Shown here one piece after another: positions 6,448-60,170 of a stretch of DNA of 64,000 bases; positions within the stretch are counted from its first letter, which is position 1; every line of letters begins with the position of its first letter. This DNA comes from Balanoglossus misakiensis (taxonomy: Eukaryota; Animalia; Hemichordata). Below the pieces are notes generated by a model. It did not search any database and had not been told where the DNA came from. It worked only from the letters and a program-made list of their open reading frames with translations. Made by a program: the position numbers and the translations under genes. The stretch is taken from assembly GCA_040954595.2 (NCBI GenBank), contig CM082590.2, forward strand, positions 5,084,001 to 5,148,000, in the 5' to 3' direction.

Positions 6448-6546
6448 TTTATCCTGCACATCGACGCTGGCATTGGATTGCAGTAGAAGTCTCACCAGGT
6501 CACCATGGCCATTCCGTGCTGCATGGTGTAACGGTGCCCAACCACC
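6448..6546 (-). CDS. Ankyrin-repeat gene, coding exon 6 (99 nt, phase 0-0): GGWAPLHHAARNGHGDLVRLLLQSNASVDVQDK
   Basis: ttgtattgccacag| acceptor and |gtaagt donor; 33 open codons matching the ankyrin consensus G-x-T/A-P-L-H-x-A-A-x-x-G-H. Confidence 0.92.
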
Positions 6547-10073: not shown

Positions 10074-10172
10074 TTTATCCTGCACATCGACGCTGGCATT
10101 GGATTGCAGTAGAAGTCTCACCACGTCACCATGGCCATTCAATGCTGCATAGTGTAACGGTGCCCGACCATG
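10074..10172 (-). CDS. Ankyrin-repeat gene, coding exon 5 (99 nt, phase 0-0): HGRAPLHYAALNGHGDVVRLLLQSNASVDVQDK
   Basis: ttgtattcccacag| acceptor, |gtaagt donor, one full ankyrin repeat. Confidence 0.92.
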
Positions 10173-13007: not shown

Positions 13008-13100
13008 ATTATCCTTCACATCGACGCTGGCATTGGATTGCAGTAGAAGTCTCACAATGTCACCATGGCCATTTGCATTGTGTAACGGTGCCCAACCATT
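13008..13100 (-). CDS. Ankyrin-repeat gene, coding exon 4 (93 nt, phase 0-0, in-frame 6-nt deletion): NGWAPLHNA--NGHGDIVRLLLQSNASVDVKDN
   Basis: ttgtattccctcag| acceptor and |gtaagt donor; paralog of the 99-nt exons lacking two codons. Confidence 0.85.
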
Positions 13101-29781: not shown

Positions 29782-30493
29782 GTGCGTATGTCCTTAACTG
29801 ACCACCAGCACCAATGCTGCAATAGAACAGAAATTTATGGTTCAAAATTGAAGCATTTCAGACCCTAATTGCTCTAGCCCTGGACTGGTCATTAATTCAA
29901 CAGATATTACAAACTATAAGTATATTGTCTATAAACACCGAGAAATTGACAACTACCAATGTTGTATAGACCAAAAATAGATTTAAGGGGACCACTTGCT
30001 TGCAAGACTGGTTCATTTAAAGTCCCAAATTGCTGCTATTTCTTGCAATATTTTCGATTTACTTCAAACTGTTAACAGGCCATCTAAAGGATCAAAGTCT
30101 CTCCCTCACTGCCGTTTTCCCATCAATTATGTTTGATATAAGACGCTGTTTATATTAAAGTAAATGTGTATATGTAGTGAATTAATGTTCGACCACACAC
30201 AACTTCCATCCCACTTGTATGATATGAGGGTAAAATTTGGCCCAAAATGAATAAATTTATGCATTTTTGACCAGATTTTACTCTCATATCATACAAGTGG
30301 GATGGAAGTTGTGTGTGGTTGAACGTTCATTCATTACATATACACATGTACATTAACATAAACAGTGTATTGTATCAAAAAAGGGCGGAGACTTTGTCCC
30401 TTTTATGTTCAGTCAATCTAGTCAAGAGGGACCCAAAGTTTAGGGACTTTATAGACGAGTGGCCTTTATAGACGGGTTGATTCGAATACACAC

Positions 30494-33622: not shown

Positions 33623-34153
33623 ACGATACTGAAGTAAGACTCAGATTCGGTTTTGGATTCAGTTTCGGATTCGGTTTCGGATTCGGGTTAGAGAGACTGA
33701 AAGTAGTTTAGCATTTTCGGGCAACCATCGCGGTTAGGCATCTGCAGTACAAGAATGAAAATTACTTTACTAAAACACGAATAAATTTGATTTAATCTGT
33801 ACTTATTATGTATGACATTTTTCTCACCCCAAAAATGTTTATTCAAACCGAAAATTACAAAATATTATCTTTCTACCATTGAAGTATGTTTTTCGATAAT
33901 AAAATATGTATTTACAATTTCCGATGTGAAAAAAACAGTGTTTTGGTGCCAAAAATATCATACATAACATGTCGAGAGAGTTTGATCAAATATATTCATA
34001 TTTTTACAGAGTTATTTTCATACTCGTACTGCAGATGCCAAACCGCGATGGTCGCTTGAAAATGCTTAACTACTTTCAGTCTCTCGAACCCGAATCCGAA
34101 ACCGAATCCGAAACTGAATCCGAATCCGAAACCGACACTAACTTCAGCATCGT
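33623..34153. mobile_element. Foldback/MITE with ~170-bp TIRs containing 6-bp tandem repeats
   Basis: ACGATACTGAAGT...ACTTCAGCATCGT termini; (TTCGGA/TTCGGT)n arms; 8-bp TSD TTGAAGGT/TTGAAAGT with one mismatch. Confidence 0.8.
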
Positions 34154-35304: not shown

Positions 35305-35346
35305 AGTGAGGAGAAACCCTAACCCTAACCCTAGCCCTAACCCTAA
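35305..35346. repeat. Short telomere-like tract (left flank of YR element A)
   Basis: AGTGAGGAGAAACCCTAACCCTAACCCTAGCCCTAACCCTAA, the same unit as 48516-49116. Confidence 0.9.
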
Positions 35347-36589
35347 TTAGGGTCCAACGGGCATTAGGGGACCTGAGATTTCGGGCTCTAACCCTACTGC
35401 CTTGCCAATGTTTTTTTTACCCCTCCTTTTGATACAATGTAGGTAAACATGTAAACAACAACAACAAAAAATATCAACAAAAACAAGTCAACCCTTCCAT
35501 GTTTTTTAAGGTCGAGTCCCCCAATGCCCCACTTATGTCTTGTTTGGCCAAAAAAAGAGGGTTAGAGAAAATTGTTTGGATTTATTTTGTTATCTTTTAG
35601 GTTGTTGTTATTGATTTTGGTCCCCTGTCTAACCCCAGCCTTTAAAAAAAAACATTTTTAGAAAGGCCTAAAAAATGCCTTGGTGGGTATATGCAAGTTG
35701 CTCCAGACGGCAAGTCTAAATTGTGCATGGACGGATTTCTTGGTAGGTACTTTTAAATTTTACATAAACCATAACAAACTATCATTTTCCGAAAGGTCTC
35801 GGCGAGTTCTATAACATACTAAAATTTGACAAACTTTGAACCTGACCTTGAAAAGTTATTGCGGAAAAACCTATTGAAAAAAACATACTTTTTAAGGTAC
35901 GCGGTGTCACCCCCTTAATATAGTTGGAAACCACTGAAAATTACAGGATAGATTGATAATAAGTTGTTTTAATGTGGTGTGGTGAAAACATTTTGAAATT
36001 CGAAGGTCAAGGTCAACTTCGCCATTGCTTATAGTTGTTGGTTTACCTATGTCGGATTTCATTATCCTTTGACCTTTGACCTTGATATTTGGTACACAAG
36101 TAGAGTGTCTATCTATAAACTCTTGACAAAAGTTATATTGAAATATTTTAACATAAAAGCACTTTTTTGACCAAAAAGCAAACTTCTGTAAATTAGCTGT
36201 AAATAAGCTTTTTTTTAATATACACTTTGCTTTTTTAAGATTATTTTTTTATTTAAAGCATTTCAAGAATGAAACTTTCCAGAAACCATCATGAGATGTT
36301 TTAGAATATAAAAAAGTTTACACTTTTGAGATTGGACGCCATTAAGTATTCCAAATGTTGTTGCAAAATAGACTGAAATAATGCCCATAGACTTAACATG
36401 TATAAAAACAAAAGAATACATTTTTTGAACACTTGGTAATTTTTTTTAATGTATTTGTTTTGTCTTTTATATTATGATATAGAGTAGTAATTGCTCTATT
36501 CAAAACACTATTTGGTTTAAAGATCTGATTTCATTTAGTCTTTTATTTTAATTTATTCTACTGTAATAATGCATGTTCAAGTATAGGGA

Positions 36590-38130
36590 AAATATTCAGT
36601 TTTGAGGTTAAGTTTGCATTACTTTTAACACACTTAGGGTTGGCCGATCTTCAAACTGTAACCGGTTTTGAGACCACCAATAACTGCTCTAAAACATATT
36701 GAAGACCGGATGTAAAATCATTAAGAATAAATTTATAGGTGGGGCCACAATAAAGGGATGTAAAAGTAATTATTTCGCTTTAATTGCATGTTAAAGAATA
36801 GGAAAAAATGATAACATTAGAGAACCTATCATAAAATGTAAAATAAAGGAGCTTAAGAGCTGATTTTTCCAGGAATGATAGACATTTAAATTCTCTATTC
36901 TGGGGTACCTTAATATCTAAGAAATGTAGACAAGAAGTTATAAAAATATAATTATGAAACAAAATGGTTGTGCCCCATAGGCTTTACACTGTAGAAAACA
37001 GGGTGTCATAGGTAAAAAATTAGGAAAGTAAGAAAACATGTCATTTAAAGCTTGTAATTTTCAGAGACTGTTAAGAACATGTTGGGATACTACCTACATT
37101 ATTTTAAAGTTGTTACATGTACAGCAATGCCAGTAACTATGAATACAAACTAGGTAATTCATAAACCTCATATAGAAATTTTCGCTATATTGCTGCCTTA
37201 TTTTTGCCACACCTGTTTATTTATTATTAAAGATTTAACATTGGGTCTTCAATATGTTTTAGAGTAATAGTTGGCCATCTCAAAACAGGTTACACTTTAA
37301 AGATTGACCCACTATAAGTGTTACAGTAGTGTTGCAAACATTAGCTAAAACTTACATTTTCCCCTATACCTTAACATAGAAAACATCACTTTACTTTTGG
37401 CACACCTATTAATGTATTCTTAAAGATTTCACATCGGGTCTTCAATATGTTTTAGAGTAATAGTTGGAGATCTCAAAACAGTTTACACTTTAAAGATTGA
37501 CCCACTATAAGTGTTACAGTAGTGTTGCAAACATTAGCTAAAACTTACATTTTCCCCTATACCTGAACATAGAAAACATCACTTTACTTTTGCCACACCT
37601 GTTTATTTATTATTAAAGATTTAACATCGGGTCTTCAATATGTTTTAGAGGAATAGTTGGAGATCTCAAAACAGGTTACACTTTAAAGATGGACCCACTC
37701 TAAGTGTTACAGTAGTGTTGCAAACATTGGCTAAAACTTACATATTTTCTGTGTGAAATTTATGAATTACCTAGTTTGTATCAATAGTTTATGGCATTAC
37801 AGTACAGGTAACAACTTAAAAATAATGTAGGTAGTATCCCAGCATGTTCTTAACAGTCTCTGAAAATAACAAGCTTTAAACAACATGTTTTCGTACTTTC
37901 CTAATTGTTTACCTATGACACTTTTTTCTACAGTGTTAACCCAATGGGGCACAAACATTTTGTTTCATAATTATATTTTTTATGACTTCTTGTTTGAATT
38001 TGAAAAACAACAATTCCCCTACAGCATAGAGAATAAAAAGGTTTATCTATTCTGAAAAAATTAGAACTTAAGCTTCTTTTGAAAAGATTTTACAGCAATT
38101 TCTAAACTTGGCCCATAGGAATACATGCAT
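36590..38130. repeat. Large imperfect inverted repeat with a central ~190-bp x3 tandem; homologous to 50740-53330
   Basis: 36780-37180 is inverted at 37750-38130; 37200-37745 holds three inverted copies of 36590-36790. Confidence 0.8.
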
Positions 38131-38555
38131 TAAAATAAGCTAGAAGATAGGCAATTTTTAACTTGGCGACATTTTTTCAAAAAGGTTTCGTTTTATGCTT
38201 ATTGAAACAAATATCTTACAATCCGATACATGGTTTTGAAGCTTAGATTCTGCTCTCGCTAACCGCTGAAACCGTTTTTCAAGAATCGTAAGAATGAAAT
38301 CAGAGAGCCAACGATTAGGATTAGTTACAATCGTAATTTGCACACACTTCTGGGTTTCGGCTAATTGTACGCACATACTTTTTAAAAAAGGCTTCGTTTA
38401 TTGCTTATTCTAATAAATATCTAACAATCCAATATATGGTTTTAAAGCTAAGAATCTTGGCTTTCTAACCGCTGAAATCGTTTTTAAAAAATCGTAGAAA
38501 ATGAAATCAGAGAGCCGTCGATTACGATTTGTAATGGTTGTATTAGGGTTATAGT

Positions 38556-39972
38556 CAGGTGGAAATTTCAGAAAATGAGCATTTTAAAAGCATGTCAGGC
38601 ATTTTTTGGTACAAGCTGGGAACAAGTTGTTTTTGGATATTTCGAATACGCTGATTTCGAATTTGCCTGTTCCCAAAAATTCTTTTCACGTTTTCATGTC
38701 GAAAATGGCAAATTAATTGGTGACGTCATAATTTCAAAATACCTAAAAGAAAACGCTGTTTGTAGCCATTATGGTGCAATATCACAGGTCAACACCATAA
38801 TAGTCTATTGAAATCATATTCTTATATTCATTTAAATATTTTTAAACAATTTTTTTAATTTAGAAACATTTTGTGAATTGGTAAAATGCTAATTTATGTT
38901 AATTAGGTCCAGGTGGAAATTTCAGAAAATGAGCATTTTAAAAGCATGTCAGGCATTTGTGGTACAAGCTGGGAACAAGTTGTTTTTGGATATTTCGAAT
39001 ACGCTGATTTCGAATTTGCCTGTTCCCAAAAATTCTTTTCACGTTTTCATGTCGAAAATGGCAAATTAATTGGTGACGTCATAATTTCAAAATACCTAAA
39101 AGAAAACGCTGTTTGTAGCCATTATGGTGCAATATCACAGGTCAACACCATAATAGTCTATTGAAATCATATTCTTATATTCATTTAAATATTTTTAAAC
39201 AATTTTTTTAATTTAGAAACATTTTGTGAATTGGTAAAATGCTAATTTATGTTAATTAGGTCCAGGTGGAAATTTCAGAAAATGAGCATTTTAAAAGCAT
39301 GTCATTCATTTTTTTGGTACAAGCTGGGAACAAGTTGTTTTTGGATATTTCGAATACGCTGATTTCGAATTTGCCTGTTCCCAAAAATTCTTTTCACGTT
39401 TTCATGTCGAAAATGGCAAATTAATTGGTGACGTCATAATTTCAAAATACCTAAAAGAAAACGCTGTTTGTAGCCATTATGGTGCAATATCACAGGTCAA
39501 CACCATAATAGTCTATTGAAATCATATTCTTATATTCATTTAAATATTTTTAAACATTTTTTTTAATTTAGAAACATTTTGTGAATTGGTAAAATGCTAA
39601 TTTATGTTAATTAGGTCCAGGTGGAAATTTCAGAAAATGAGCATTTTAAAAGCATGTCATTCATTTTTTTGGTACAAGCTGGGAACAAGTTGTTTTTGGA
39701 TATTTCGAATACGCTGATTTCGAATTTGCCTGTTCCCAAAAATTCTTTTCACGTTTTCATGTCGAAAATGGCAAATTAATTGGTGACGTCATAATTTCAA
39801 AATACCTAAAAGAAAACGCTGTTTGTAGCCATTATGGTGCAATATCACAGGTCAACACCATAATAGTCTATTGAAATCATATTCTTATATTCATTTAAAT
39901 GTTTTTAAGCATTTTTTTAAATTTAGAAACGTTTGGTGAATTGGTAAAAATGCTAATTTATGTTAATTAGGT
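38556..39972. repeat. Satellite-like tandem array, 4 x 353-355 bp, near-identical
   Basis: CAGGTGGAAATTTCAGAAAATGAGC at 38556, 38910, 39263 and 39618. Confidence 0.97.
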
Positions 39973-40784
39973 GACACGCCCATCTAAAATCAATGGTCTA
40001 CAAAAGAGAGCCAACAGTGTTAAGTGAGGTGTCTATTGCAATGTTTTCAGGGTCAAGGAATTCAAATATGCAATCGATTACCTTGTCAAACAAGGTACAG
40101 CATGGAAAATATGCAAAATTAACTTAATTACTCACGATGTCATGCTAAAATTGACAATTGAAAGCTAATGATACGACTATGGCCTGTGAGGTGTCTATTC
40201 ACATGTTTTTTGGCAAATGTTTGCATTTTAATGAATAACTGAAATGAAACTTTTCATATTTGTATGTAATAGCATGTAAAAAACAACAAAAAACAAACAA
40301 AGAAACATACACAACGAGGATTTAGTTTAGACTGTACATGCTCGTTGGTAACATCGTGACCGATCGCTCCGTTAAAAAAACACCAGAACATTGAACGTAT
40401 GAACGTTTAGGTCCACAATTCACAAGTTATTGAACTATGAATGTATGTTCAATGTTGTGAAAAGCCAAAAACATACTTTTTGCCAACAAAACTGGCATTT
40501 GTTAACGTACAAGTTGTTCATTAATAGCGAAAGCATCGTATGGCCACACTCACATTATGCCAGCACCGTATATTCATGCTTAGTTATAAGACGTTGAATG
40601 CACACTGATGGCCCGACGTCCTCGGTGTTTTATTGAAACCCGGTCTCTAACAACAATATCTCTTCATAAGTAAAGAGTAATGTGTATTTTTATTACGTTT
40701 TTATATATGATACTGTGTGCAAAGTGAAGATTGTGTCAGTGAGGCAACATATATACATGTATGTTTAATCCACTTGGGTGTCGT

Positions 40785-42980
40785 ACTTGGCTCAGATGTG
40801 TGTACTAAACAAATTCAGATAGCGAGCCACAATATCTGTTGATGAGTTTTCATGGCAATCATTTTTTTAATTTTTTCGAAATGGCCGCCAATACAGATAA
40901 TCTCACCCGCAAAATAACAATTATAAAACACCACAATAAATTCATATTACAATATTTGAAACAAGAAACTGCTCAAATTTTCAAAAAATATATCATCACT
41001 AAACTAGTTATAGGGGTAAATACAGGATCGAGATTCAGTCGCTAAAGAAATTCAAGTTTGGTAATAACCCCGGTTACAACAAACTTAGTTAAAACACTGT
41101 ATAACCATATATATATTATAATAGTGGCCTGGCATAAACACAATTTTCGTAACATTTGGGCATTTTGTGATAAAAGTTTAACAAGTAAAGCTCAGTTGAT
41201 TCGTTATTTTCCCCATAAAAATATCTTTGATGAACAAAATTCCAAATTTAGTCAACCCAGGAAAAAACGGCATCTTGTTTCTCAACCTTATAAATTGATC
41301 TGACCAGTTTGAATTAGTGCAGAATCCAGCTTTTCTATTTTATCTTCATCAAATGATTCATGCAGATAAAGAATCACTTCCCCATAAAATGATGGCAGAA
41401 ATCCAGTATCATGACAGTCGATTGGTTTGTTAAAGTTACTATAGAAACTAACTATATGTCTAGGGTGCATGTACATAGATAGATGTTAGGAATCAAAATC
41501 AAAATCTGTTTCAAACTTTTCATCCAATACTTGTCCTTCGGAAAGCGTTTTGATGAAGTCGCTTGAAGTGCTTTGTATCATGTTATCGATAATTTTAATC
41601 ACACCTTGATGATAGTCAGCAGTTCTATTTTGACATGTTATTTTGTGTATTTGTGAACACCCAAAAGAATAAAATGATAAAGTGAAAATAAGCTTCAAAA
41701 CACCAAAAGTCTTCAGGATCACAGCTTTTCTGTAAAGAGTAAGATTTCGCTTACTTCATGCTATTAAATGAAATGAAGTTTTCCGTAATATCTCTTGCAA
41801 AGTCAGATCTTTACACATTGAGATATTAGAATGGAAGTACATTCCAAGTGACTTGTTGGGAGCCTTGGGGCACCTAATCCCAGAAAATTGCAATAAGACC
41901 TGTTTTTCCATTTACCAATCTAAAGGCCAACTGCTTGTATATTTAGTTGGGTTTCTATAATTAACACACATTTTTGACAATATTTATGGCATGATGGACA
42001 CTATTCTCGACAAATAAAATAATGTTGTGTCCTCCGGTGTAATTTTTATGAGTTTGGAATCATAGACACCATTTATCTTTTGGTCAACTCTGTTAACAGT
42101 CGCCAAAATTGCTGGAGTGGAACTGATACATGATCTAAAGTATCAAGACATATGGTCGATTATTAACGTTTCAGCAATTTGACTTAAGTTTCTTTAATTT
42201 CCTATGGCATTTTGACAAACATTAACGCCCCGAAAAAACGTTGTCAACGCTGCGGTGGCGATTGTGGTCGAAACAAAGCCGCTTGGTTCGTTACCCGGGG
42301 TCCATTTAGATTGCATTGCGTTTGAGGCCCTATGTCTGTCGACCAATAAACGTGACGACCGCGGACTCAGTTTGGATCAACGTCTATTTCGGGCAGTGGA
42401 CTCTCCTATCAAGTTGATAAGGAAATTTTACCAGTCACGAGTAAGCCAAGCCCACATCCGTGTGCAATTCGAATAAATCGGTGATCTGTTTATATGATTA
42501 TCATTAGCTAAGGTGGTAAAGTGTTGTGATTCATATGTGTAATTTACGTACTGCAAGTTAAATATCGCAATTAGCCTAATGTTTGACCATAGACAGTATG
42601 GTTTGACTTCTAGAGGAGCACCTATTAATCTGAAAGGGATTAAAAGTTGTGCCTTTAAATTGTGTTTTGATAACTTACTTACCCCTATAAGTAGTTTAGT
42701 AACCATAATATCTTTGCAAATCATTCATTCCACAGTTCCTTGTATCAAATATAGTAATCTAAATTTATTTTGGTGTTTGCAGATGTTATTTGGTGGGTGA
42801 AATTATCTGTATTGGTGGCCATTTTGAAAAATTGGTTGCCATGGAAACTCATCAACAGATATTTAGTGGCTCCCTATCTGAATTTATTTAGTACACATTA
42901 ACACACATCTGAGCCAAGTTTGGTGCTTTTATCACAAAATGCACAATCGCTATGAAAATTAGGGTTTGGCCGCTCCACTA
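40785..42980. mobile_element. Academ-like non-autonomous element with long TIRs (left tip missing), carrying a LINE remnant
   Basis: 40785-40905 is inverted at 42800-42920; right terminus ...GGTGCTTTTATCACAAAATGCACAAT...GCCGCTCCACTA. Confidence 0.6.
41150..42200 (-). pseudogene. Highly decayed L1/Tx1-type LINE RT C-terminal fragment
   Basis: Reading through stops gives KSLGMYF...IA*SKRNLTLYRKAVILKTFGVLKLIF, resembling KYLGI...W..R.LSL.GK..I.K.L..SKL.Y. Confidence 0.55.
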
Positions 42981-43845
42981 CGGGGCTTTAGACGGCCATA
43001 TGGAATTGCCACATCGAGGCTCTTGTCTCAAAATGAACTTCACACTTGAAGTATTGTTTTGAACAAGGTTTAAGTCCTTTATTAAAATAAAGAAAAGGTA
43101 ATTTTTTCCAATGCTTGTGAGTTTTCAGTACATGTACTGTTACACCTAGCTTTATTATTATTTGGTAGCCAAAAATCAACGAATTATTCATACAATATGC
43201 AAATTTTGCATAATTATTGTTGCTATTTTGTGTTTATACAACCAAAAAAAGTTGTTGATGTAAACATGTAGTTTAGTTTCATTGTTTAAGGAGGTACGTG
43301 AACATTTCTTTGATGCTATTCATGTGAGAATTGCGATCCTTGGCGGCCATTTTGATTTGCCAAAACGAGGCTCTTATCTTACAACCATTTTCGGGTTTCG
43401 GCGACAGGCTGACGAATATGCTATTTTTAAGAGTTTGCTTTAATTATTTCACGAATCCAACATATCATGAGAAAGAGCGGATCTTGTGCTTCCCAACGAT
43501 ATACATGATTTTCTTATTTGTTTTTATTTTCAATACATAATTCATTGATTTTGTAGCACACTGTCAAGCACGATGCTTGCTATTGCATTTAAAATACGAC
43601 TCCCTAACTTACTCTTAATCTTACTTCCCACGAAACCTCGGTTTTCTCGTCGACGAAAACATTAAATCTACGTTATAATGCATTAGAGATACAGTTTAAA
43701 CCGCTAGCAAAAGGTACTCTATTTACTTAAGAGTCCATCTAAGGTTTTTCCCGAGTTTGTGCGCTACTCCAGTCACTCATTTGCTCAAAGTATTTCGTCC
43801 GTCAACCGCTATTCAAGGCACTCATTCAAGGCACTCATTTCTTAA

Positions 43846-44641
43846 GATGGGTCCCTGGGATCTTTTTGCTCGTTGCTATGGGCCTTTATAGGACACTACA
43901 CTCAATTTTGATCGAAACCGTTATGAACGTCCGACAAGGGGCTTGTAACTAGTTAAAAATACGCATGATTGTGTGCACACCCCCTGTCTGAGTATGTTTA
44001 CGGCAGCTACCGCCCGGCCATAGGCCGCCACGCTAATACGGCAAAGCCGCGGTCAGAGATAGCGTGCGCGTCCTGTAACCACAGTAACTGGATCGAACGC
44101 TAAAAATCCAATGTTTTGTACACAGAGATTTTGTACCGTTCACGAAAATCCCTAAGGCTTTTTTTCACAGGCGACGTAGGCCAGCCAAATTTGACCTGCT
44201 TGTTGAGAACGCACTTCCGCATAGTGTGACGGATCGTTTTTTCGGTTTTCGTCGTGCTAAGAAGCGATACCAGTGGAAGAGTGCGTCCAAAAACACCCAA
44301 AATCGATGACTTTTTCAGGTGTGGTACGGGTATGCTGAAATCGTAGGATACAACGATAATATTCGAAAACAAAATCCGTCACGATCTTCCCTGGTTCAAG
44401 CAACTAATGAATACGTATCAAGTTCGTTTTTGAGGTCACGGAATAAAAAGCCTTAGGCTTTTGAAATTTGACCTAACTAATCTGCATATCAATGGCGTCA
44501 GGGGGCGCGCGCTCACAATCGTGCAGATTTTCAACTAGTTACCAGCCCCTTGGTAGACTCTGAAAACGGCTTAGTCCAAATCGGGGTGTAATGTCCTATA
44601 AAGGCCCATAGCAACGGGCAAAAAGATCCCAGGGACCCATC
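43846..44641. mobile_element. Kolobok-like MITE inserted into the repeat array upstream of the YR gene
   Basis: TTAA|GATGGGTCCCTGGGATCTTTTTGC...GCAAAAAGATCCCAGGGACCCATC|TTAA; ~55-bp TIR, TTAA TSD, RR...YY ends. Confidence 0.85.
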
Positions 44642-44675
44642 TTAAAGGTCATCATTGATTATTTTGTTCTTAGGT

Positions 44676-44853
44676 TCGTCAAGAGTAAACCGCTATTCAA
44701 GGCACTCTTTTTCTGTAAGGTCACCATTTATTATAAGGTTCTTTCGTCCGTCAAGAGTAAACCGCTATTCAAGGCACTCTTTTTCTGTAAGGTCACCATT
44801 TATTATAAGGTTCTTTCGTCCGTCAAGAGTAAACCGTTATTCAAGGCACTCTA
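44676..44853. repeat. 72-bp tandem repeat carrying a 29-bp dyad motif; further copies at 47051-47079 and (partial) ~43800
   Basis: AAGAGTAAACCGCTATTCAAGGCACTCTT at 44681, 44753 and 44825 (variant). Confidence 0.92.
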
Positions 44854-44859
44854 TTCACT

Positions 44860-47052
44860 ATGTCTAAGAGAGTATTTGGTAGTTCATATTGTGATATTTC
44901 TGATTCTGGTTCACACTTGTCAGGTGTTGAAGCTCTTCCAGTTGAATCATCTGACACAGAAAGCATAGAAATTCCACCAGCTCGCAGTGCAGGTAGGCCT
45001 AAGCGACTCTTTCCGGCTAAATATTTCTATGGGTCTAATAAGAAAAAGCAGAGGAAATCAAAACAGCCAAATAAACAGGATTTGAGGAAAAAAATTGACT
45101 GTCCAGTAGATGACTGCTCTGCCAAAGTGTTCAAGCTTAAAAGGCACCTAATGCAGATGCATGATGTCCCTGAAATGAGGGCGTTATTGATGACATCAAA
45201 GCACGCAACAACAAAAAGAATGGAAAGAGGGGCAAATCGAGACAGACCTTACCATCAATGTCCCCTCGATTGTGGTGCTACGGTTAAAAGACTGGACAAG
45301 CACCTGATGAATACTCACCGGTACGAGAGGGGGGATCCTCGTCTGGCGAATATTTTAGCCGACGCAAAAAAAAAATCTTACAAAAAGGCCGCGTTAGAAA
45401 GGAAGGCTCGTAAACAATCAACCGTATCAAACGCATCTAAACAAAACGAGCACAGGCCCAGAAGCCGAACAAGACGGGACCGGCAGGGCATAACGGAAAA
45501 AAGAAACCGCTCTCCCAGAAGCCCCCAGCAGGCCCCAGTTAGGGAAATAATCCCTGTAGTCAGAGAATCATCTGACGAGGAGTACATAGTACCACCTAAA
45601 CGTTACCGGCGTATCATTCCCCCCGCTAATAGTGATGAGGGTGAGGTCGAAGATGTGAGCGAAATATTAAATTCGTTTGAGGCCCACCTTTTGACTGCAG
45701 ATGGAGGGCGCCGATCACAAACTTCGGCCAAACAGAATAGGTCTCAGGTAGGCCGCCTTTTCCAGTCATTGGGGTCCCTTGAAGCAGTGGGAGATAGACA
45801 AAAAGTTCTTAATTTCATTGAAAACACACCCAATCTTAAAGTAAGTTCCGTAAGGAGCTATCTATTTTCATTTGGTATGTTTTATAACTTTTGTTCATGC
45901 AGCACCCCACCTCTCCTCCCAGGCAAAGCAGATCTGATGCACAGATTAGTTTTAAAATGGGCTACTAGCTACAGGAAAGAGGTAAATCAAAGGTCTGCCG
46001 AATTCCAATCCGAAGTGGTGCACCAGCTGATAACACATGCCAAATTTAGATCCTTTGAAAATAGCAAAACGGCAAGAGATGCCTACAAAATTATTGCATC
46101 TGCTGGGAAGAAAACCAAAGTTAGCGAACAGGAATATAAAACTGCTAATGGGTATATACTGGTCTGCATAGCCCTGGATTCTGCCTAAAGATCTGGAGCG
46201 CTGCGCAATGTAACAATCCGCGACTTCAATAAAGCGGTTGAAACCGACAACGGTCATGTTGTTTTAGTCGCAGAACATAAAACGGCCAGCTCCCATGGCG
46301 TGGCACGTTTGGTATTTACCAGGCCTCTATATAGAATAACATCACTTATGATTAGAGACTTGTTGCCTAAAACACCAGGTGGAAAAAAACCCACAAGGAG
46401 ACTTTTCTCAAGTTTTTGTGGAGAGCAGCTAAGTAGCTCTACTTTCGCCAAATTCTTGGCTGATTCCTGGCGGAAATCAGGAGTTTCAAAAAAGAAACTG
46501 ACAAGTACTATTTGTCGAAAGAGTATGGTCACCATGGTTTTAGACACCCAGCCCGAACTATCGAAGAAATTGGCTAGCCATATGAGTCACAGGGAGACGA
46601 CCCAGGCATCCTATTATAGGATTGCTGGAGCTGTGCAGGAAAGTTCTAATGTCATGCAGGAAACAAGAAAAATTAGAGATGGATTAACATCAAAAAGTAA
46701 TGCAAAAGTTGAAATTGGTCAAACAGAACCAAAGGAGGAGGAGAAAGTAGAGCCAATGGACACTGGGGAGGATGATACAGCTGTAGATCCTCTGGAAATT
46801 GTGGATTCTGAATCCATACATGCACCCTCCACTACCGAGCAGTCGCACGTCTTCTCTGGAAGACGAAGCTTTTCAATAGACCAAGTTGAACTGATAGAAG
46901 GAAGATTTAGAAAAAACATCTTGGAAAAATGTGTCACTGCTGCCCAGGTTAGGCAAGTAATGGAGGAAGACCCTGATTTTAAGGGCAGGTTCCATGGATA
47001 TACGGTGAAGCAAATTGTAGACAGAATCCGGTGTAGTTTCAGAAAAAGATAA
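44860..47052 (+). pseudogene. C2H2 zinc-finger + tyrosine recombinase + C-terminal Myb/HTH-like protein, 730 codons with one in-frame TAA (46186-46188)
   Basis: ORFs 44860..46188 and 46300..47052 are in the same frame. Two C-x2-4-C...H-x4-H fingers are present. YR motifs: DSA*RSGALRN (R), EHKT (K), TICRKS (R), ASHMSH (H), QASYY (Y). The sister copy reads DNAQR at the stop. Confidence 0.88.
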
Positions 47053-47509
47053 GAGTAAACGGCTCTTCAAGGCACTCTTTTCCCGGTGTAGTTTAAGAAA
47101 AAAGTAAAGTTAGTTGTATACCAGAAAGCAAAAAAAAAAAAAAAAAAAAAACACTGGCATGACACATGCAAAAATACATTAACAAACATACTGAACACAC
47201 ATTCATATGCACCAAACATACTTACACACACTGACATTACACATGCATGCACAAACATGTTCTTTGTTACTGTTTTTGTTTTGTTATTAATGTTTAAAAA
47301 GGAAGACAAGAAGACTGTTGAAGATAAGAAGAAAAAGAAGAAGAAAAAGAATGTTATTTGTTGTAAAAAAAGGCACAGAGAAATAAAATAAGTGTGTCCA
47401 ATTGGTGTCTCAAATGCTATGTCTGATATATTAAAAATAGAGACATGCATTTGATATCCCAGTTGAAACACACAAAACCTCAGCTACGGAGAGTACAAGG
47501 GCATATTGG

Positions 47510-47800
47510 AACCCTCAAAAGGTAGACATTCAAGAAGGAATAGGTAAAAAACAACAACAATAAGGCGAGTAAAATGTGTGCTTTATTAGTGTAAACATTG
47601 CTTTATTTAATCCCTCAAAAGGTTGAAATTCAAGAAGGGAGAGGTAAAGAACAACAGCAATAAGGTAAGTAAAATGTTTGCTTTATTTGTGTAAAACATT
47701 GCTTTATTTTATCCCTCAAAAGGTGGAAATACAAGAAGGAAGATGTAAAGAACAACAGCAAATGGGTGAGTTAAATGTTTGTTTTATTATTGTAAATATT
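47510..47800. repeat. ~100-bp tandem repeat x3 downstream of the YR gene
   Basis: CCCTCAAAAGGT at ~47512, 47612 and 47713. Confidence 0.8.
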
Positions 47801-48307
47801 GTTTGAATAACAATGGTAAATGAAGTTAATTATGTGTGACCTTGAAACTAACGTTGCATTCAAAGACATTCAAACACATTTGAAAACTGTTAACACTTAA
47901 AATCCTAAAGAATTTTATGTTTTTCAATGTTAAATACAAGATGAGGTGTGAAATAAACAATTTTTAAAAAAGGTCATTTTCAACAAATTATATGTTTTGT
48001 TTGATAGCCTATAAAAAAATAAGTTGAGTGTGGTTGAGTATGGTTTTTTATTTGTTGTAAAAGGAGAAGATTTGCTCTCTAAAACTGTTTTCAGAATGAA
48101 AATCGGACATCATTAAGTAGTCAAAAAAATTATTGAAAAAGTATGGAAAATAAATATTTTCAAATAAAGTTTTTTGTATCAAAAAAAAATAATAAACTAA
48201 AGTTAACTAGCTAAAGGTATGTATTAATGAAAGATGTATGAATTGAAACCAAAAAAGGGACTAACCCTCTTGACCTTGACCTAACCACGCCTAAAAAAAA
48301 AAATTCG

Positions 48308-48512
48308 GGTCCCCTAATGCCCAACTTATGACGTAAGTTGGGCATTGTGAGACTTGATGTTGGGCATTCGGGGACTTGAAGTTGGGCATTCGGGGACTTG
48401 AAGTTCGGCATTAGGGGACTCAGGTCCCTCAATGCCCAACTTCAAGTCCCCCAATGCCCAACTTCAGGTCCCTCAATGCCCAACTTCAGGTCCCCGAATG
48501 CCCACCGGACCC
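48308..48512. repeat. Palindromic array of ~nine 22-bp subterminal motifs (GAAGTTGGGCATTCGGGGACTT)
   Basis: One reverse, four forward and four reverse copies; single copies at the left end (35359 forward, 35514 reverse). Confidence 0.9.
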
Positions 48513-48515
48513 TTA

Positions 48516-49116
48516 CCCTAGCAGTGAGGAGAAACCCTAACTCTAGCCCTAAAACTAACCCTAGGAGTGGGAGAAACCCTAACCCTAGCCCTAACCCTAG
48601 CAGTGAGGAGAAACCCTAACCCTAGCCCTAAAAATAACCCTAGGGGTGGGAGAAACCCAAACCCTAACCCTAGCCCTAACCCTAGGAGTGGGGAGAAACC
48701 CTAGCCCTAACCCTAGCAGTGATGAGGAACCCTAACCCTAATCCTAGCCCTAACCCTAGCTGTGAGGAGAAACCCTAACCCTAGCCCTAAAACTAACCCT
48801 AGGAGTGGGGAGAAACCCAAACCCTAACCCAAGCCCTAACCCTAGCAGTGAGGAGAAACCCTAACCCTAGCCCTAAAACTAACCCTAGAAGTGGGGAGAA
48901 ACCCAAACCCTAACCCTAGCCCTAACCGTAGGAATGGGGAGAAACCCTAGCCCTAACCCTAGCAGTGATGAGGAACCATAATCCTAACCCTAGCCCTAAC
49001 CCTAGCAGTGAGGAGAAACCCTAACCCTAGCCCTAAAACTAACCCTAGGAGTGGGGAGAAACCCAAACCCTAACCCTAGCCCTAACCCTAGCAGTGATGA
49101 GGAACCCTAACCCTAA
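48516..49116. repeat. Interstitial telomere-like satellite: CCCTAA/CCCTAG runs punctuated by (GC/GG)AGTG(A/G)GGAGAAA spacers
   Basis: About 600 bp of CCCTAA, CCCTAG and CCCAAA hexamers in a higher-order repeat. Confidence 0.95.
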
Positions 49117-50739
49117 TTAGGGTCAAAGTGGTCCTCCGTGTAACCCGAATTCAAAGGTCTACCAAAAAAATCATTATGTTTTTCTAAGGTTATAAACACT
49201 GTAAGTGATAGATTACAATAAATTATTTATTTTAAGTTATTGGAGCTCTAACCCTTGTATATTTCAGGGTGAAAACAACTCAGGTAACATAGAGGACCAG
49301 TTTATCGGTTAAGGTACCATAATGGAATTGGTTAAAAGCATTTTGGTTGACCCTAATAAGTAATCCAGGTGTTATTCAATTGTATAAGTGTCCCCTTCTA
49401 CCCCCCTGCAGGAAAACAAAGTGAAAAAATGTTGGTCCAAAAAAATGTAGTAAAATTCTTATACTTACTGTGAACTGGCTGCATCAGAAAAAAACGAAAT
49501 CTTCACAAGCATGATTTTTGGCATAAAAATCGTTATTTCACCGAATTTTGAAAAACCTTTGGCACGTTTGTAATATTTTTGATGCTAATTTTATTATACC
49601 AAAATTTTAAAAATTCATCAAGATTTAGGAAAATTATTCAAATAACCAGTGTTGGGGACCACTTTGATGTTACCTGTGTATTGTCTATGGGCGAAAATGC
49701 GACTTTTTTAAATTGTTGCAATTTCATTGTTATTAAACATACAGCTGTCAAACTCACATATTTATTAACGTTGACATAACAGATTTCAAAACTAGTTTCA
49801 GTTTTAAAATCGAAGGTCGCTAATGTGAGTTGTAGGTTACAAAAAACATACCAAAGGTAAATTTTAAAATTTTCATGCTTGTTTTGTTCGGAGCACTCCA
49901 GTTTGTTTATTTCTAAAGCTTTCACTTTGATTGTTCAATATGTTGTAGATATGAAAATGTTCTTTTAAAAACAGGTTACACTTTTGAAATCGGTGGATGG
50001 GAAGTTGACCAATTAATGCCATGTATGAGGTGCACCCGAAATTAACTGTATCCTGATTTTTTTTTTTAAATATACACTTTGCTTTGTTAAGATTATTTTT
50101 TTTATTTTATGCATTTCAAAGATGAAACTTTTGGTAAACCATTATGAGATGTTATAGAATATTGAAAAGTTTACACTATTAAGATTTGACACCATTAATT
50201 ATTTCAAATAATGCTGCAAAATAGACTGAAATAACTCCCATTGACTTAACATGTATAAAAACAAAAGAATAAGTTTTTGGGGACACTTGGAGATTTGTTT
50301 TTATGTTGAAAACTCGGCGAAAAATGGTTTGTTTTATGCTTATTCTAACGAATATCTTACAATCCAATATATGGTTTTTAAGCTCAGATTCTGGGCTCTC
50401 TAATCCTGAAAACCGTTTTCCAAAAATCATAGAAATAAAATCAGAGAGCCAACGATTACAATTTGTTACGATCGTATTTTGCACTCACTTCCGCGTTTCG
50501 GCCAATTGCAGACAAATACTTTTTATAAAAGGCTTTGTTTTATGCTTATTCTAACAGTTATCTAACAATCCAATATATGGTTTTAAAGCTTAGAATCTTG
50601 GCTCTCTAACCACTGAAACCGTTTGTCAAAAATCGTAGAATCGAAATCAGGGAGCCAACGATTATAATTTGTTATGGTCTTTTTTCGTGTGTAGGGTTAG
50701 GTACTTAGGGATTTGGGCGACAGGCAAAATCCTCAGTTT

Positions 50740-53330
50740 TTTTAGGTTAAGTTTACATCACTTCTGACTCACTTAGAGTGGGCCAATCTTTAAAGTGTAA
50801 AGTGTTTTGAAATCGTCAATTACTGCTCTAAAACATGTTAAAGACCGGAGTTGGTATCTTTTAGAATAAATTAATAGGTTTGCTACAAAATAAAGTGATG
50901 TTTAAGTGATTCTTTTGTTTTTATGCATGTTAAAGAATAGGATAAATTATAATATTTGTGACCCTATCCTGATTTGTACAATGAAAGTAGCTTGAGTACT
51001 GTTTTTTTCAGGATGTATAGACATTTGAATTCCCCATGCTATAGTACATTATTTTTTTGAAATGTAGACAAGAAGTTATAAAACTGTAATTATGAAAAAT
51101 AATGTCAGTGCCCCATAGGCTTTACACTGTAGACAACAGGGTGTCATAGGTTAAAATTTTGGAAAGTAAGAAAACATGTTGTTTAAAGCTTGTTATTTTC
51201 AGAGACTGTTAAGAACATGATGGGATACTCCATACATTTTTTTAATGTTGTTACATGTACAGCAATGCCATTAGCTATTGGGTCAAAATAGGTAATTCAT
51301 ATATCTCACAATGACATTTTTGTTATATTGCCATGTGTTTGCAAAGTTGCTTTAAACACTTAGCATCGTCCAATTTTAAAACAGTTTTCTGTTTTGAAAA
51401 GGGTATAAAAAACTACATAACAGATTGAAGAATCAAATATTAGGAATAAGGAAACTGCATTGTTCCAAGAAAGGTGCTGTCAATCGACAAAGTAGACAAT
51501 ACTGTTTGACCCCTTTAACAGCATATATTATCACACAAAATTGACATTGTTGTACCACTCTGGTTTCTTTATTTATTCAGCAATGAAGTTCACACTTTAA
51601 CAATATATTAAAAACATATTGTTCTTTATAATACATATGAAACAGTTTTAAAATCGGATAATGCTAAGTGTTTAAACCAACTTTGCAAACATATATTGCA
51701 ATATAACAAAAATGTCATTGTCAGATTTATGAATTGCGTATTTTGACTCAATACCTATTGGCATTACTCTACATGTAACAACTTTTAAAAAATGTATGGA
51801 GTATCCAATCATGTTCTTAACACATTCTGAAAATAACAAGCATTAAACAACATGTTTTCTTACTTTCCAAAATTTTAACCTATGACACCCTGTTGTCTAC
51901 AGTGTAAAGCCTATGGGGCACTGACATTATTTTTCATAATTACAGTTTTATAACTTCTTGTCTACATTGTCTCATTTAGAGTGGGCCGATCTTTAAAGTA
52001 TAACCTGTTTTGAAATCGTCAACTACTGCTCTAAATCATATTGAAGACCTGATGTGGTATCCTTAAGAATAAATTAATATTTGTGCCAACCAAAAAGTGA
52101 TGTTAAAGTGATTCCTTTGTTTTTATGCATGTTAAAGAATAGAACAAATGATAAAACTTAAGACCCTACCCTAAGATGTACAATAAAGGAGATTTAGTAC
52201 TGATTTTTTCAGGAAGAATAGACATATACATTCTCTATTCTGGAGTACAATAATATTAAATAAATAAAGACAAAAGTTATAAAAATATAATTATGAAACA
52301 AAATGTTTGTGCCCCATAGGCTTAACACTGTAGAAAACCAGGTGTCATAGGTAAAAATTTAGGAAAGTAAGAAAACATGTCGTTTAAAGCTTGTTATTTT
52401 CAGAGACTGTTAAGAACATGATGGGATACATACATTTTTTTAAAGTTGTTACCTGTACAGTAATGCCAGTAGCTATTGATACAAACTAGGTAATTCGTAA
52501 ATCTCACATGGACATTTTCGTTATATTGCCACTTTATTTGGCACACCAGTTGATTTATTCTTGAAGATTTCACATCGGATCTTCAATATGTTTTAGAGTA
52601 ATGATTGGCGATCTCCAAACAGGGTACACTTGTCTACATTGTCTCATTTAGAGTGGGCCGATCTTTAAAGTATAACCTGTTTTGAAATCGTCAACTACTG
52701 TTCTAAAACATATTGAAGACCTGATGTGGTATCCTTAAGAATAAATTAATATTTGTGCCAACAAAAAAGTGATGTTTAAGTGATTCTTTTGTTTTTATGC
52801 ATGTTAAAGAATAGAACAAATGATAAAACTTAAGACCCTACCCTAAGATGTACAATAAAGGAGATTTAGTACTGATATTTTCAGGAAGAATAGACATATA
52901 AATTCTCTATTCTGGAGTACATTAATATTAAATAAATAAAGTCAAATGTTAGAAAAATAAAATTATGAAACAAAATGTTTGTGCCCCATAGGCTTAACAC
53001 TGTAGAAAACCAGGTGTCATAGGTAAAAATTTAGGTAAGTAAGAAAACATGTTTAAAGCTTGTTATTTTCAGAGACTGTTAAGAACATGATGGGATACTA
53101 CATACATTTGTTTTAAAGTTGTTACCTGTACAGTAATGCTAGTAGCTATTGATACAAACTAGGTAATTCATAAATCTCACCTGGACATTTTCGTTATATT
53201 GCCACTTTATTTTTGGCACACCAGTTGATTTATTCTTGAAGATTACACATTGGGTCTTGAATATGTTTTAGAGTAATGATTGGCGATCTCCAAACAGGGT
53301 ACACTTTTAAGATCGACCTACTCCAAGTGT
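50740..53330. repeat. Inverted repeat (51070-51400 vs 51640-51965) plus ~670-bp tandem duplication (51960-53330)
   Basis: TGTCTACATTGTCTCATTTAGAGTGGGCCG at ~51959 and ~52631; reverse-complement arms surround 51420-51620. Confidence 0.85.
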
Positions 53331-53639
53331 GTAAAATCTGATTTAATAACATGCATCCACTGTTCATGTAATACATGGGCAAGTTTAAATTAGGGACCAG
53401 AGTTTATCACTTACCCTTAGCTTCATTTCTCTTCATGATTGCATTGGTTCATTTCGTGTAGATTATTGTGCATGTTAAAACAGATTGACTTCAAAAGTGC
53501 TGCATTTTAAAGTCGCCAGTACTTAGGAAGTACACCTATTAGGAAGCACGTTAAACCACTGCATCTTCTTCAAAACATGTATGTATTTATTGAGTGCATG
53601 TGAGTGTGTGTCAGTGTTATGATAATATTAATAATAATT

Positions 53640-54055: not shown

Positions 54056-56014
54056 TTAAGTTGCTTTTTCTCTCTTATCCACCCTATTAATTCTGTCCTT
54101 TCTTATTCTTAATTGACGTACGGACACAGTTTCGAATTTGTTTGGTTGAGAATTCCGCCATTTCATCAGCCAAAGTTGGGTTGTCTTCTTGTACTTTTCA
54201 ACATCTTTGCTGCTAACTTTACCAACTGCTATCTCTTCTGCAAACATTTCTTTAATGGCTTGCTAAAAGTGTGACGGCCGTGTTCAATTCCATGGCCTGA
54301 AGTTTGACTTATATTGTCCCCCACCCTATACCAGGGCTGCCAGTCATCTCCACACCACCCTCATCTGTATTGTCAACAAAAGGCCTTTTGGATATGGCCA
54401 GTTTTGAAAACAACTGATTTGGGTGGTGGTCAATGCTGGGTGGTGCTATGCTTCCAACTGAACTCTCATCATTTCATATTACTCAGTTGCACTCACTTTC
54501 ATTTTTTCTCTTCCATTTTTTATTCGCAACTATCTTGGAACACAATTCACGCGTTGAATAGGTAACACTCGCAGATTCCTGCACACCTTTTGTCATGGCA
54601 TAAAAAGATGTCTGTGAGCGGGAACTTTGTGCCATGTGTGATGCGAGGGGCACTGCAAGATCAGGATCGTTCAGCAAAACATATGTAACGGTGGATTTGC
54701 ATAAAATTGTTGTGGTCAGTTCTTTTGAAATGACATCCGCGAAGCGCCAGGCAGCTTTCAGCGTCTTCGCAAACGTACTCGAGTTAAAATCCCTGCCATG
54801 ATACATCCTGAACAATCTGGTAGAGTTATCATTCTCCCCCCCCCCCACCCCTCACAAAAGGGTAATACGTGTTCAATCTACATCATAGCCTGTTTATACA
54901 GTGTAGACGAGAAAACAATTCTCGCGGGCCCTGATGCTGCTGAAGTTTTATGTGCCGCAACAGTCACAACAAACCCCTTGTCAGTCTCTTTTGGCTGCTC
55001 TAACATCCCCAACTGTTATATTTTTATAGGCACAATTTCTTTGTGCATTGTCTAGGACTAGTTGCACCATAATGTGGCCTGACATTAAGCAAAAATCTTC
55101 TCGTGAAACCCCTTGTCAGTCTCTTTGGCTGCTCTAACATCCCCAACTGTTATGTTTTATAGACACAATTTCTTTGCGCATTGTCTAGGACTAGTTGCAC
55201 CATAATGTGGCCAGACATTAAGTAAAAATCTTCTCATCAAACGTGTGGTCTGCCCTCCCCCACATAGCTAAACTCCACAAAAGCCCTGTTGGCGTGGATC
55301 GCCATTTCGCACGTCTCATAGGATGCAATCTCCTCAGGAGTTAAGAACTTCTCCTGTTCTGCATCCTGAAAAACACTTCTCCTTAATTTTACTTCTTTTG
55401 TCAGACTCTGAGCCCAACGTCTACTATGATTTATCATCTGGCGTGCATTTTTAATAAAACCATTATGTTCTGAATCGAGAAAATGATAAAAAAAAGTCTC
55501 AAAGAAAAAATATATGACCGAACTGTTGAAGCTTCATAAGGCTTGAGCATGGCTTCAAGACATTCCCTGACTTTTCCCTTTTCACTCAAACCTTCCCCCC
55601 CCCCACCCCACCCAAACAGACTCAACCAGTGTTTCATCCTGAGCTGGATGCTGGATGGCTGCTTTCCCAAATTTTCTCCCCCCATCCATTCCCTGTATCC
55701 ACTTTTTACAATCAGTTATAATAATATTTTCTGTGCTTTCCATCACCCCTACCCTCTTTCTCTCTAATTTCTGCCTCCAATTCTCTGTCTGTTTCAATAA
55801 CCCCCACCCCTCTCTCGCCTTCTGAATCACTTCTATTTACTGATTCGAAATCTCTTTCTCTTTCACTAACCCTCTCCCCCATCTCACCATCACTTTTATT
55901 ATTTCTGACTTCTAAAGATCTTTTCTCCCCTTCCCTACAACTTCTTTTGCGATCTTCCTGCCCTACATTGCCCTTTTCCCTCTGCTGTGTAATGTATTCC
56001 CTTTTGAGTCGCAA
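54056..56014 (-). pseudogene. Second tyrosine recombinase gene of the same family, multiply frameshifted
   Basis: Fragments align in order with the 44860-47052 protein: GMDGGRK/TADGGRR, STVRSYIFS/SSVRSYLFS, RWAQSLTKEV/KWATSYRKEV, AHKTSAASGPARIVF/EHKTASSHGVARLVF, SSTFAKTL/SSTFAKFL, LASHMAQ/LASHMSH, GVQESA/AVQESS. A ~135-bp duplication lies at 54972-55235. Confidence 0.88.
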
Positions 56015-59053: not shown

Positions 59054-60170
59054 TGTAATATTCAGGCTACTACAGTGATGGCGGAGAGAACACACTTTAT
59101 TACTAAGTGTACTACGCATGCGTATAGATGACGTCATGCACATAAACAACATCCCATTATGTTACATCTCCCTTTTTTTCAGCGGAAAGTCATCAACAAC
59201 AATAACAACAAAACAAGTGAACAGATCATCATAGTCCTTGTCCTTCAAATATCTGGCAGACTTCTTCAATACTTCAACAACAAATCTGTTCAGAGTTCGA
59301 ATGTTCATCGAATGTTCAAGTGTTCAGAATGTTCAATTCAAAACTGTTTTTTTTTCTTAATAAACATGTTTCGTTTGGTGTGTGCATATGTATTTCAACA
59401 AACTCCGAAATCAGTTCTTTCCACATTAAGTGTGTACATAGTCCTGGAATCTTACTGGTCTTCTCACAACGCGTCCTCTGGAAGTGGTTTTCACTGACTG
59501 GTTGCCTGTGGCATCTGCTTGCGTCATACTGCTACAAACCGAGTTAGGATTGGTTACCGTCATCTCTTTGTTAGGTTTTACATCTGGTGTAGTTTCTTCA
59601 ACAGCAGGTGGTTGACAATACTTTACAAGCAGGTGGTCATCAGCGACATCTGGAACAACTGGCATTTCTTTTGTTTTCCTGGTCACGGCGGTTTCTACGG
59701 TAGATGTGTCCATTTGACTCGACAATATATAATCGTGGTGTACTTGCTCTGGACTGTACAACTGCTGGTTTCCATCATTTGGTTGTCTTCATCCTCACAA
59801 ACTCATCGTTTGATAAACTGGGCAGATCTTTGGCATGCTGGTCATGATAGTATTTCTGTCTTTGTTTCAATGTTTCCAGGCTTGGCTTTACATTCTCAAC
59901 ATGTTTGGGCTTCAGCAAAATCTCGCTGGTTGGAAAGAGTGTTTTTTGTTCTCCTACCCATGAGTCTCTGCACAGGTGATCCCAGCTGGCTGTCACGTGG
60001 TGTGTTTCTGTGATCCAACAAAGCTAAATATGGATCCTTGTTATTCCGCTTGGCTTTCTTCATAAGCGATTTAGCACTTTTGACTGCATTTTCTGCCATT
60101 CCATTAGATTTGGGGTATCTTGGACTTGATGTGACGTGTTCAAATCCATAGGCAGCTGCAAACTTGACAT
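59054..60170 (-). mobile_element. Gypsy LTR retrotransposon 3' remnant: integrase fragments, PPT and 113-bp 3' LTR (59054-59166)
   Basis: TSSPRYPKSNGMAENAVK, ALLDHRNTP, SPVQRLMGRR and TSRGRVVRRPVRFQDYV motifs; PPT AAAAAAAGGGAG; LTR TGTAA...TTACA abutting the Ngaro gag. Confidence 0.9.

Follow-up and report, generated by a model that had tools for sequence, protein, structure and literature searches.

Within a window of 64,000 nucleotides from Balanoglossus misakiensis (contig CM082590.2, positions 5,084,001 to 5,148,000, the whole stretch analysed here) lies element 1 (35347..48515, + strand), a broken and dead copy of a transposon whose sole transposition enzyme is a tyrosine recombinase (YR), with neither RT nor DDE. 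The reading that we favour, at a probability of roughly 0.6, is a YR-only DNA transposon of about 7.5 kb before other repeats became nested in it, which likely moved as a circle and likely integrated at CCCTA(A/G) of telomere-like repeats. Such homing is likely, as a prediction from the sequence of one locus. A preliminary description of this DNA had proposed that a DNA element bounded by these ends, with a YR as its only enzyme, sits in telomere-like repeats, and to that extent it is supported.

As found, element 1 measures 13,169 bp, or about 7.5 kb minus the nested repeats. Its terminal inverted repeats (35347..35376 and 48486..48515, both given on the + strand) match at 24/28 positions, while the best of 200 pairs of random 100-bp pieces of the window reached 19/28; the inverted termini described earlier are thus borne out, with the start at 35347 and the end at 48515. 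The left repeat is made up of a 9-bp arm and a single copy of a 22-bp subterminal motif. This motif has ten matches in the window, two at the left and eight at the right, none of them more than about 200 bp from an end of element 1, and those at the right form a cluster of mixed orientations (48301..48504). A 6-bp direct repeat, ACCCTA, is present at 35340-35345 and again at 48515..48520 (+), and so the Crypton-like short terminal direct repeat that had been suggested finds support for element 1. Further inside is an internally repetitive non-coding block (36209..38538), which a second element shares (50061-53330) at about 80-85%.

Nested repeats account for 5.6 kb of the interior. The larger part is an insertion, or several, of 4.8 kb (38552..43378), which includes a 355-bp tandem of four units (38556-39972) and a piece bounded by inverted repeats (40785-42919); contigs from two runs of a single sample lack it, and its contig depth is far above that of the YR. 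The smaller is a MITE of about 800 bp (43846..44641) that has inverted ends of 143 bp, is flanked by TTAA on either side and is missing in one contig; it is putatively Kolobok-like. One contig of the sample lacks both the 4.8 kb and the 0.8 kb, so that about 7.5 kb remain, with a single gene. The element had been called large and cargo-tolerant, but the excess length is that of nested repeats missing from the sample contig, and gene cargo was rejected when the interior peptides gave none. Of the 95 interior peptides of at least 45 aa, 70 were searched for DDE families and none matched, which bears out the reported absence of a DDE transposase ORF; the other 25 comprise the two YR frames (scanned separately), 16 more that overlap the YR gene and seven of the 355-bp tandem. 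RT and RNase H, the hallmark of DIRS, VIPER and TATE, were not found inside 35347-48515.

The single gene of element 1, YR1 (44860..47052, +), encodes two C2H2-like fingers, a SAM-like domain, the YR catalytic domain, an acidic linker and a three-helix homeodomain/Myb-like tail. The ZnF-YR gene reported earlier is therefore present as a frame at 44860-47052, but in the window sequence it is interrupted by an in-frame TAA (46186-46188) one codon ahead of the catalytic R444. A sample contig that crosses this TAA has one difference from the window somewhere along its length. The remaining catalytic residues are K474, R553, H577 and Y586, and the set of R, K, R, H and Y is kept in 156/157, 156/158, 141/145, 144/145 and 137/140 aligned relatives, respectively. 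The modelled structure has a pLDDT of 95, its best matches among solved structures are XerA, Cre and Tn1549 integrase, and the predicted fold is Cre/Xer-type with conserved catalytic residues.

The family to which YR1 belongs counts 987 clusters (E<=0.001), with members from hemichordate, cnidarians and eel. The nearest named relative is Ptychodera flava XP_070576810, and Hydractinia and Clytia also have relatives. A word-seeded protein search returned only two relatives, and a PDB search with the single sequence gave no match. The C2H2 pattern occurs in 75 of the 97 family proteins of at least 500 aa, the SAM-like domain has weak matches in one or two of 19 relatives, and a conserved C-terminal domain, its structure predicted, is present in 139 family proteins. 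DUF3504 matched neither the frames of the window (E<=1) nor the 19 relatives (E<=0.01). A telobox-specific tail was considered and rejected: the telomere-binding domains TRF1 (Z 4.5) and 4j19 (Z 4.8) score no better than ordinary homeodomains, the best of which reached Z 5.4 (rmsd 2.5, 60 aligned), and a Foldseek search with the tail had no match at E<=0.001. No relatives of 1956-5000 aa were found, a size range which limits what the search can say. Viral contigs and prokaryote genomes held no related loci, while metagenomes yielded two, of 3.0 and 5.7 kb, neither of which extends to an element end.

Element 1 sits in a telomere-like minisatellite. The first unit lies to its left (35305..35346, +), and the direct repeat has its left copy in the hexamer that ends this unit; the array resumes at the right (48516..49116, +) with 14 complete units, eleven of 42-43 bp, one of 36 and two of 31, before a final unit is cut by element 2. 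The units are composed of CCCTAA/CCCTAG hexamers and a 13-bp linker. Of the telomeric CCCTAA target proposed earlier, the telomere-like hexamers stand, but within the window they form a minisatellite with its linker and no pure telomeric array. The 11-mer CCCTAACCCTA occurs 21 times in the window, always inside the array, and precedes both left junctions.

The empty site was inferred from the array units. Removal of 35347-48515, as first suggested, does recover the quoted 25-mer, but it leaves a unit of six hexamers, and the 26-mer across the join has no match in the array. When one extra hexamer is removed as well, the resulting unit is 41/43 identical to 49049-49091, in register and followed by the correct next unit; joins that assume no repeat or a TTA duplication have no array matches. 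The empty site would thus fit the array only if the 6-bp direct repeat ACCCTA is also removed. No empty allele was seen among the sample contig joints listed (15/42, with rows 35308-35350 left out) or in a second contig comparison, and no circle junction was seen in those same joints or in the loose ends of sample contigs, which drop rare forms. The junction motif has no matches in viral contigs or in prokaryote genomes.

A second junction of the same form (49111-49124) marks the left part of element 2 (49117..53330, +), which has 8 bp of terminal identity to element 1 as well as the shared interior block; its right end was not found in the window. A degenerate second YR of the YR1 family, YR2 (54543..55707, - strand), with stops and frameshifts, is 36% identical to YR1 over 190 aa; it may belong to element 2, but has the opposite orientation relative to what would then be its left end. 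A candidate third terminus at 53390 has TTTAAA rather than a hexamer as its outer flank. In the sample, a contig of run X2 follows the array to 49029 and then enters a variant of the element-2 end in a different unit type, a junction that may come from this locus on the other allele. A contig of run X1, with a depth of 270 or about 2.5 times that of the element 1 body, differs from the element 2 of the window, and its computed start is 14 bp inside the hexamer flank. Run X3, at 0.09 of words, was left out of the evidence. Two hexamer junctions have therefore been seen in the window and one or two in contigs, at a single locus and in a single sample, with detection in contigs limited to junctions alignable to the array. 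That another, related element lies at a like site strengthens the predicted targeting. The computed depths of the left flank-array contig (154) and the right-junction contig (147) stand beside a median of 110 for the element 1 body. As the flank contigs are as deep as the body, element 1 may exist at one locus only, and the shared flank is not independent evidence; the argument that all copies share the right flank was rejected for this reason.

These observations suggest a route of integration. Joined end to end, the element would present a standard YR site, with the 9-bp arm GGACCCTTA, the 6-bp spacer CCCTAA and the inverted 9-bp arm TTAGGGTCC. Because the 6-bp direct repeat is needed for the empty site, the circle is predicted to close with a telomeric hexamer between the two arms. 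Recombination of the spacer CCCTAA with a host hexamer would leave the left junction with the element's spacer and the right one with CCCTAG from the host, and the hexamers observed at the junctions, an element-type spacer and CCCTAG, agree. Since the arm resembles the telomeric repeat, the upstream hexamer would serve as one half-site; the downstream half-site is a poor match. The 22-bp subterminal motifs are putative accessory sites for the fingers or for the C-terminal helix-turn-helix domain. A precedent exists in arms of 11-13 bp that flank a spacer of 6-8 bp, and a circular intermediate has been proposed for Cryptons (PMC3212892).

The preliminary description had envisaged a YR transposon without a duplicated hexamer and with a near-palindromic, spacerless circle junction. 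The array contains three copies of the 25-mer over the join, CCCTAG copies are two hexamers apart in one unit type, and the first unit may be irregular, all of which suits that version. It nevertheless demands the six-hexamer unit, seen in 0/14, and offers no 6-8-bp spacer between the 9-bp arms; array arithmetic favours the retained hexamer, and we hold the spacerless form to be improbable. The ends might instead belong to a non-autonomous PIF/Harbinger-type element with GGG inverted ends and a TTA duplication, in which the YR gene is a passenger. TTA is formally present on both sides of GGGTCC...GGACCC, and subterminal repeats such as those seen here are common in DDE elements. However, the implied empty site CCCTAATTACCCTAG has no array matches, element 2 would require an identical unusual target, the interior peptides searched gave no DDE match, and the only gene of the short form is the YR, so that we regard this origin as very unlikely.

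Two further explanations concern the array rather than the ends. The minisatellite could be part of the end of element 2, or of a carrier repeat, with element 1 inserted into a relative. On this view the hexamers beside element 2 would be element sequence and no target. All element-2 junctions seen have an array-type flank, related array units seemingly occur at few loci only, and the DNA leftward of the array is itself repetitive. Set against this, element 2 breaks off a unit behind its second hexamer, as expected of an insertion, array-type sequence enters unrelated DNA in other contigs (loose ends 48986 and 49018), and element 1 would in any case still lie at a hexamer. We consider this arrangement rather unlikely. 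There may also be no sequence-specific targeting at all, the shared array reflecting local hopping or insertions tolerated in repeats. The single locus and the terminus at 53390 without a hexamer flank would fit, and a like caveat has been voiced for nimaviruses (PMC7016691). Yet the hexamer phase is identical at both junctions, the 11-mer precedes 21 of 128,000 strand positions, and the element's arm is similar to the repeat; an absence of targeting strikes us as highly improbable.

Several known systems resemble the dead YR-only transposon favoured here. Starships are likewise eukaryotic DNA elements mobilised by a YR, but they are fungal and giant, with gene cargo and a DUF3435 captain, none of which is seen in element 1. 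Cryptons A, F, I and S share the YR as only enzyme, and the 4-6-bp terminal direct repeats described for Crypton groups of fungi and oomycetes are comparable to ACCCTA (PMC3212892). According to the same source, these four groups have no terminal inverted repeats, unlike the 24/28 match of element 1, and the animal CryptonA and CryptonI lack terminal repeats as well as a C-terminal domain (PMC3212892), whereas element 1 has both, together with C2H2 fingers, and gives no DUF3504 match. CryptonV has been entered in classification tables (PMC4455052, PMC5753468), and some of its families insert specifically in microsatellites (PMC8869645, citing Kapitonov and Jurka, 2012, Repbase Reports 12:2034). 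Compared by description only, it is likewise an animal YR DNA transposon, described from cnidarians, the source of most named YR1 relatives; that description does not mention telomeric hexamers as a target. TATE of Leishmania braziliensis is a YR element as well, and its position within telomeric hexamer repeats is fixed, but it is a kinetoplastid retrotransposon with RT and RNase H, while element 1 is without RT (PMC6681497). Endogenous nimaviruses, 280-400-kb viruses of crustaceans, carry YRs with a C2H2 finger and a SAM-like domain and insert in host telomeric (TAACC)n, with no obvious target duplication reported in these accounts (PMC10871703, PMC7016691). The likeness to the YR1 family is one of architecture only (C2H2, SAM-like, YR), and no named nimavirus protein was among the 50 viral fold matches listed, some of which are unnamed.

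Few DNA transposons of animals are target-specific, and most of what is known of CryptonV comes from database notes. Novelty is nonetheless lower than first proposed, since CryptonV, nimaviruses and TATE are already reported to integrate by a YR at telomeres or microsatellites; among the papers listed by searches outside Repbase Reports and subscription journals, none described a YR DNA transposon of animals, other than viral, in TTAGGG repeats. With a dead copy, no cargo and a behaviour that has precedents, the gain is one of mechanism and family definition and not a new kind of element. The locus offers a readable and testable rule, arm, telomeric hexamer, arm, which, if true, would explain how YR elements can locate telomere-like repeats with no need of homologous recombination; how nimaviruses reach telomeric repeats is a question left open in PMC7016691. 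More tentatively, and with less than even odds, a large animal YR transposon family of about a thousand clusters, essentially undescribed outside Repbase, may include a lineage that has the telomeric hexamer as its own spacer and integrates site-specifically in TTAGGG-type repeats. The telomere-specific integrases of nimaviruses could have their non-viral counterpart, or their source, in this lineage, which could also be a natural repeat-targeting integrase for animal genomes. The rule of arm, hexamer and arm, if right, would point to a recombinase family able to place DNA in telomeric repeats.

Element 1 (35347-48515) is a real tyrosine recombinase (YR) element, and its preliminary description is corrected in part. 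The proposed termini stand: the left end (from 35347, TTAGGGTCC) and the right end (to 48515, GGACCCTTA) form an inverted repeat identical at 24/28 positions, compared with a maximum of 19/28 when 200 pairs of pieces were drawn at random from the window. All 10 window matches to a 22-bp motif fall within ~200 bp of these ends. The sole long gene inside, at 44860-47052, is the zinc finger-YR gene already described; overlooked at that stage was an in-frame TAA at 46186-46188 (codon 443), and, barring an error in the assembly, this copy could not encode the complete enzyme. The reported lack of a DDE transposase also holds, as none was found among the 70 of 95 interior peptides of at least 45 aa that were scanned against Pfam; five of the 70 gave weak matches below the cut-offs, none of them DDE. 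A motif of 17-26 bp, possibly a regulatory or binding site, is repeated upstream of the YR start (44640-44855 and 43801-43840) and occurs once just past the stop (47055-47081).

The read-through YR region matched 987 clusters at E<=0.001 and 384 at 1e-10. Residues R444, K474, R553, H577 and Y586 are nearly invariant among aligned relatives and intact in the element-1 YR. The predicted structure (pLDDT 95) resembles XerA, Cre and the Tn1549 integrase, as well as many phage and giant-virus integrases. A species name was found on 8 of the 30 relative clusters looked up, all eight animals; named relatives come from Ptychodera flava, Clytia, Hydractinia, Desmophyllum and Paramuricea, plus one eel protein. 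In a FastTree phylogeny of 96 sequences, built without outside references, the element-1 YR pairs with the Ptychodera protein (support 0.95) within a five-member clade (support 1.0). Of 97 family proteins at least 500 aa long, 75 carry a C2H2 pattern. A 60-aa C-terminal tail is common to 139 proteins and is predicted as three to five homeodomain/Myb-like helices; its modeled scores against such domains are middling and do not favor telomere binders.

Removal of 35347-48515 had been thought to restore an exact unit of the flanking array, a telomere-like minisatellite (48516-49116). Instead it leaves six hexamers, whereas all 14 complete units to the right of element 1 hold five at most. ACCCTA stands directly at both junctions, and removing the element with one ACCCTA copy gives a unit 41/43 identical to that at 49049-49091, which then leads into the usual next unit. 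TTA at the ends could alternatively be a Harbinger target duplication, but this model implies a site with no match in the array. Our preferred reading, with a probability of roughly 0.6, is that a YR tetramer would bind the arms and excise a circle keeping one hexamer as spacer, which would recombine with a host CCCTA(A/G) hexamer, the preceding hexamer mimicking an element arm. We infer excision, circle and integration from the anatomy of the element and the known Cre/Xer/Tn916-type recombination chemistry. The predicted joined ends would read arm GGACCCTTA, spacer CCCTAA, arm TTAGGGTCC, the arm-spacer-arm layout of YR sites in PMC3212892. Neither joined ends nor an empty allele was seen in the sample's contigs.

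The junction is repeated at 49111-49124, followed by a 2.3-kb block common to element 1 (~80-85%) that belongs to a related element, element 2; its right end was not found in the window. Another YR of this family, YR2, is present in degenerate form at 54543-55707 (minus strand). Summed contig depth at the start of element 2 is 7-12x that of the element-1 body. One sequencing run (X2) has a contig that leaves the array in another unit and continues into a variant element-2 end, and a deeper contig of another run (X1), with a variant base, starts inside the hexamer flank. No non-hexamer flank was found at loose contig ends among the matches listed (11 of 13), a weak absence because two further rows were discarded for lying at repeats and contigs resembling human DNA were filtered out. 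Contigs matching the hexamer tract at 48731-48767 sum to ~620x element-body depth (X1), and telomere-like hexamers are therefore abundant in the genome.

Against hexamer targeting, the array may belong to element 2 rather than being a target. The left-flank-to-array and right-junction contigs are as deep as the element-1 body, and element 1 may therefore be a single locus. A terminus-like sequence at 53390-53430 (TTAGGGACC), with a 9-mer at 53390, is ~1.1 kb beyond the stretch where the 3' part of YR2 was matched and has an outer flank that is not a hexamer, which counts against such targeting; it is either a third element or chance. A 126-bp tandem lies between it and YR2, and element 1 has a comparable 101-bp tandem. 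No element ends were obtained from other species (two metagenome relatives, 3.0 and 5.7 kb).

Element-1 DNA is present in three runs of one sample, where a single contig joins 38551 to 43379 (seen in two runs) and 43839 to 44640. The skipped segments, a patchwork of tandem and inverted-repeat pieces (38552-43378) and a MITE flanked on both sides by TTAA (43846-44641), are repeats of much greater depth. The suggestion of cargo tolerance is unsupported because the repeat-free form comes, by arithmetic, to 7,547 bp; the extra length is nested repeats absent from this contig. The 4.8-kb insertion sits at a TTAGGGTTA motif (38543-38551), where the uninterrupted contig has a short two-unit telomeric tract with five bases replaced; this motif may be favored by another repeat as well.

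Elsewhere in the window, a degenerate retroelement at 56400-59160 (minus) has RT-, RNase H- and YR-like frames, DIRS/Ngaro-like by eye, and fragments at 59400-60250 (minus) resemble an LTR-retrotransposon integrase by eye; Pfam gave no match for either. A broken LINE at 198-3226 (minus) retains an endonuclease and a reverse transcriptase domain. Local duplications lie within 3500-15034; among them are two 4-kb copies matching at 89% (8098-12093 and 10988-15034) and a 400-bp piece present four times. Palindromic MITE-like repeats of 300-530 bp lie at 15372-15710, 30085-30386, 61637-61924 and 33623-34153.

Element 1 works in a Crypton-like manner, yet departs from Crypton groups A, F, I and S in having inverted repeats, and in having a C-terminal domain and no DUF3504 match. 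Its likely home, compared by description only, is CryptonV, microsatellite-specific elements from cnidarians (PMC8869645). That the hexamer-spacer rule is general across a lineage seems doubtful. Telomere-repeat-specific YR integration itself is already published, both for TATE (PMC6681497) and for nimaviruses, in which the YRs carry C2H2 and SAM-like domains (PMC10871703).
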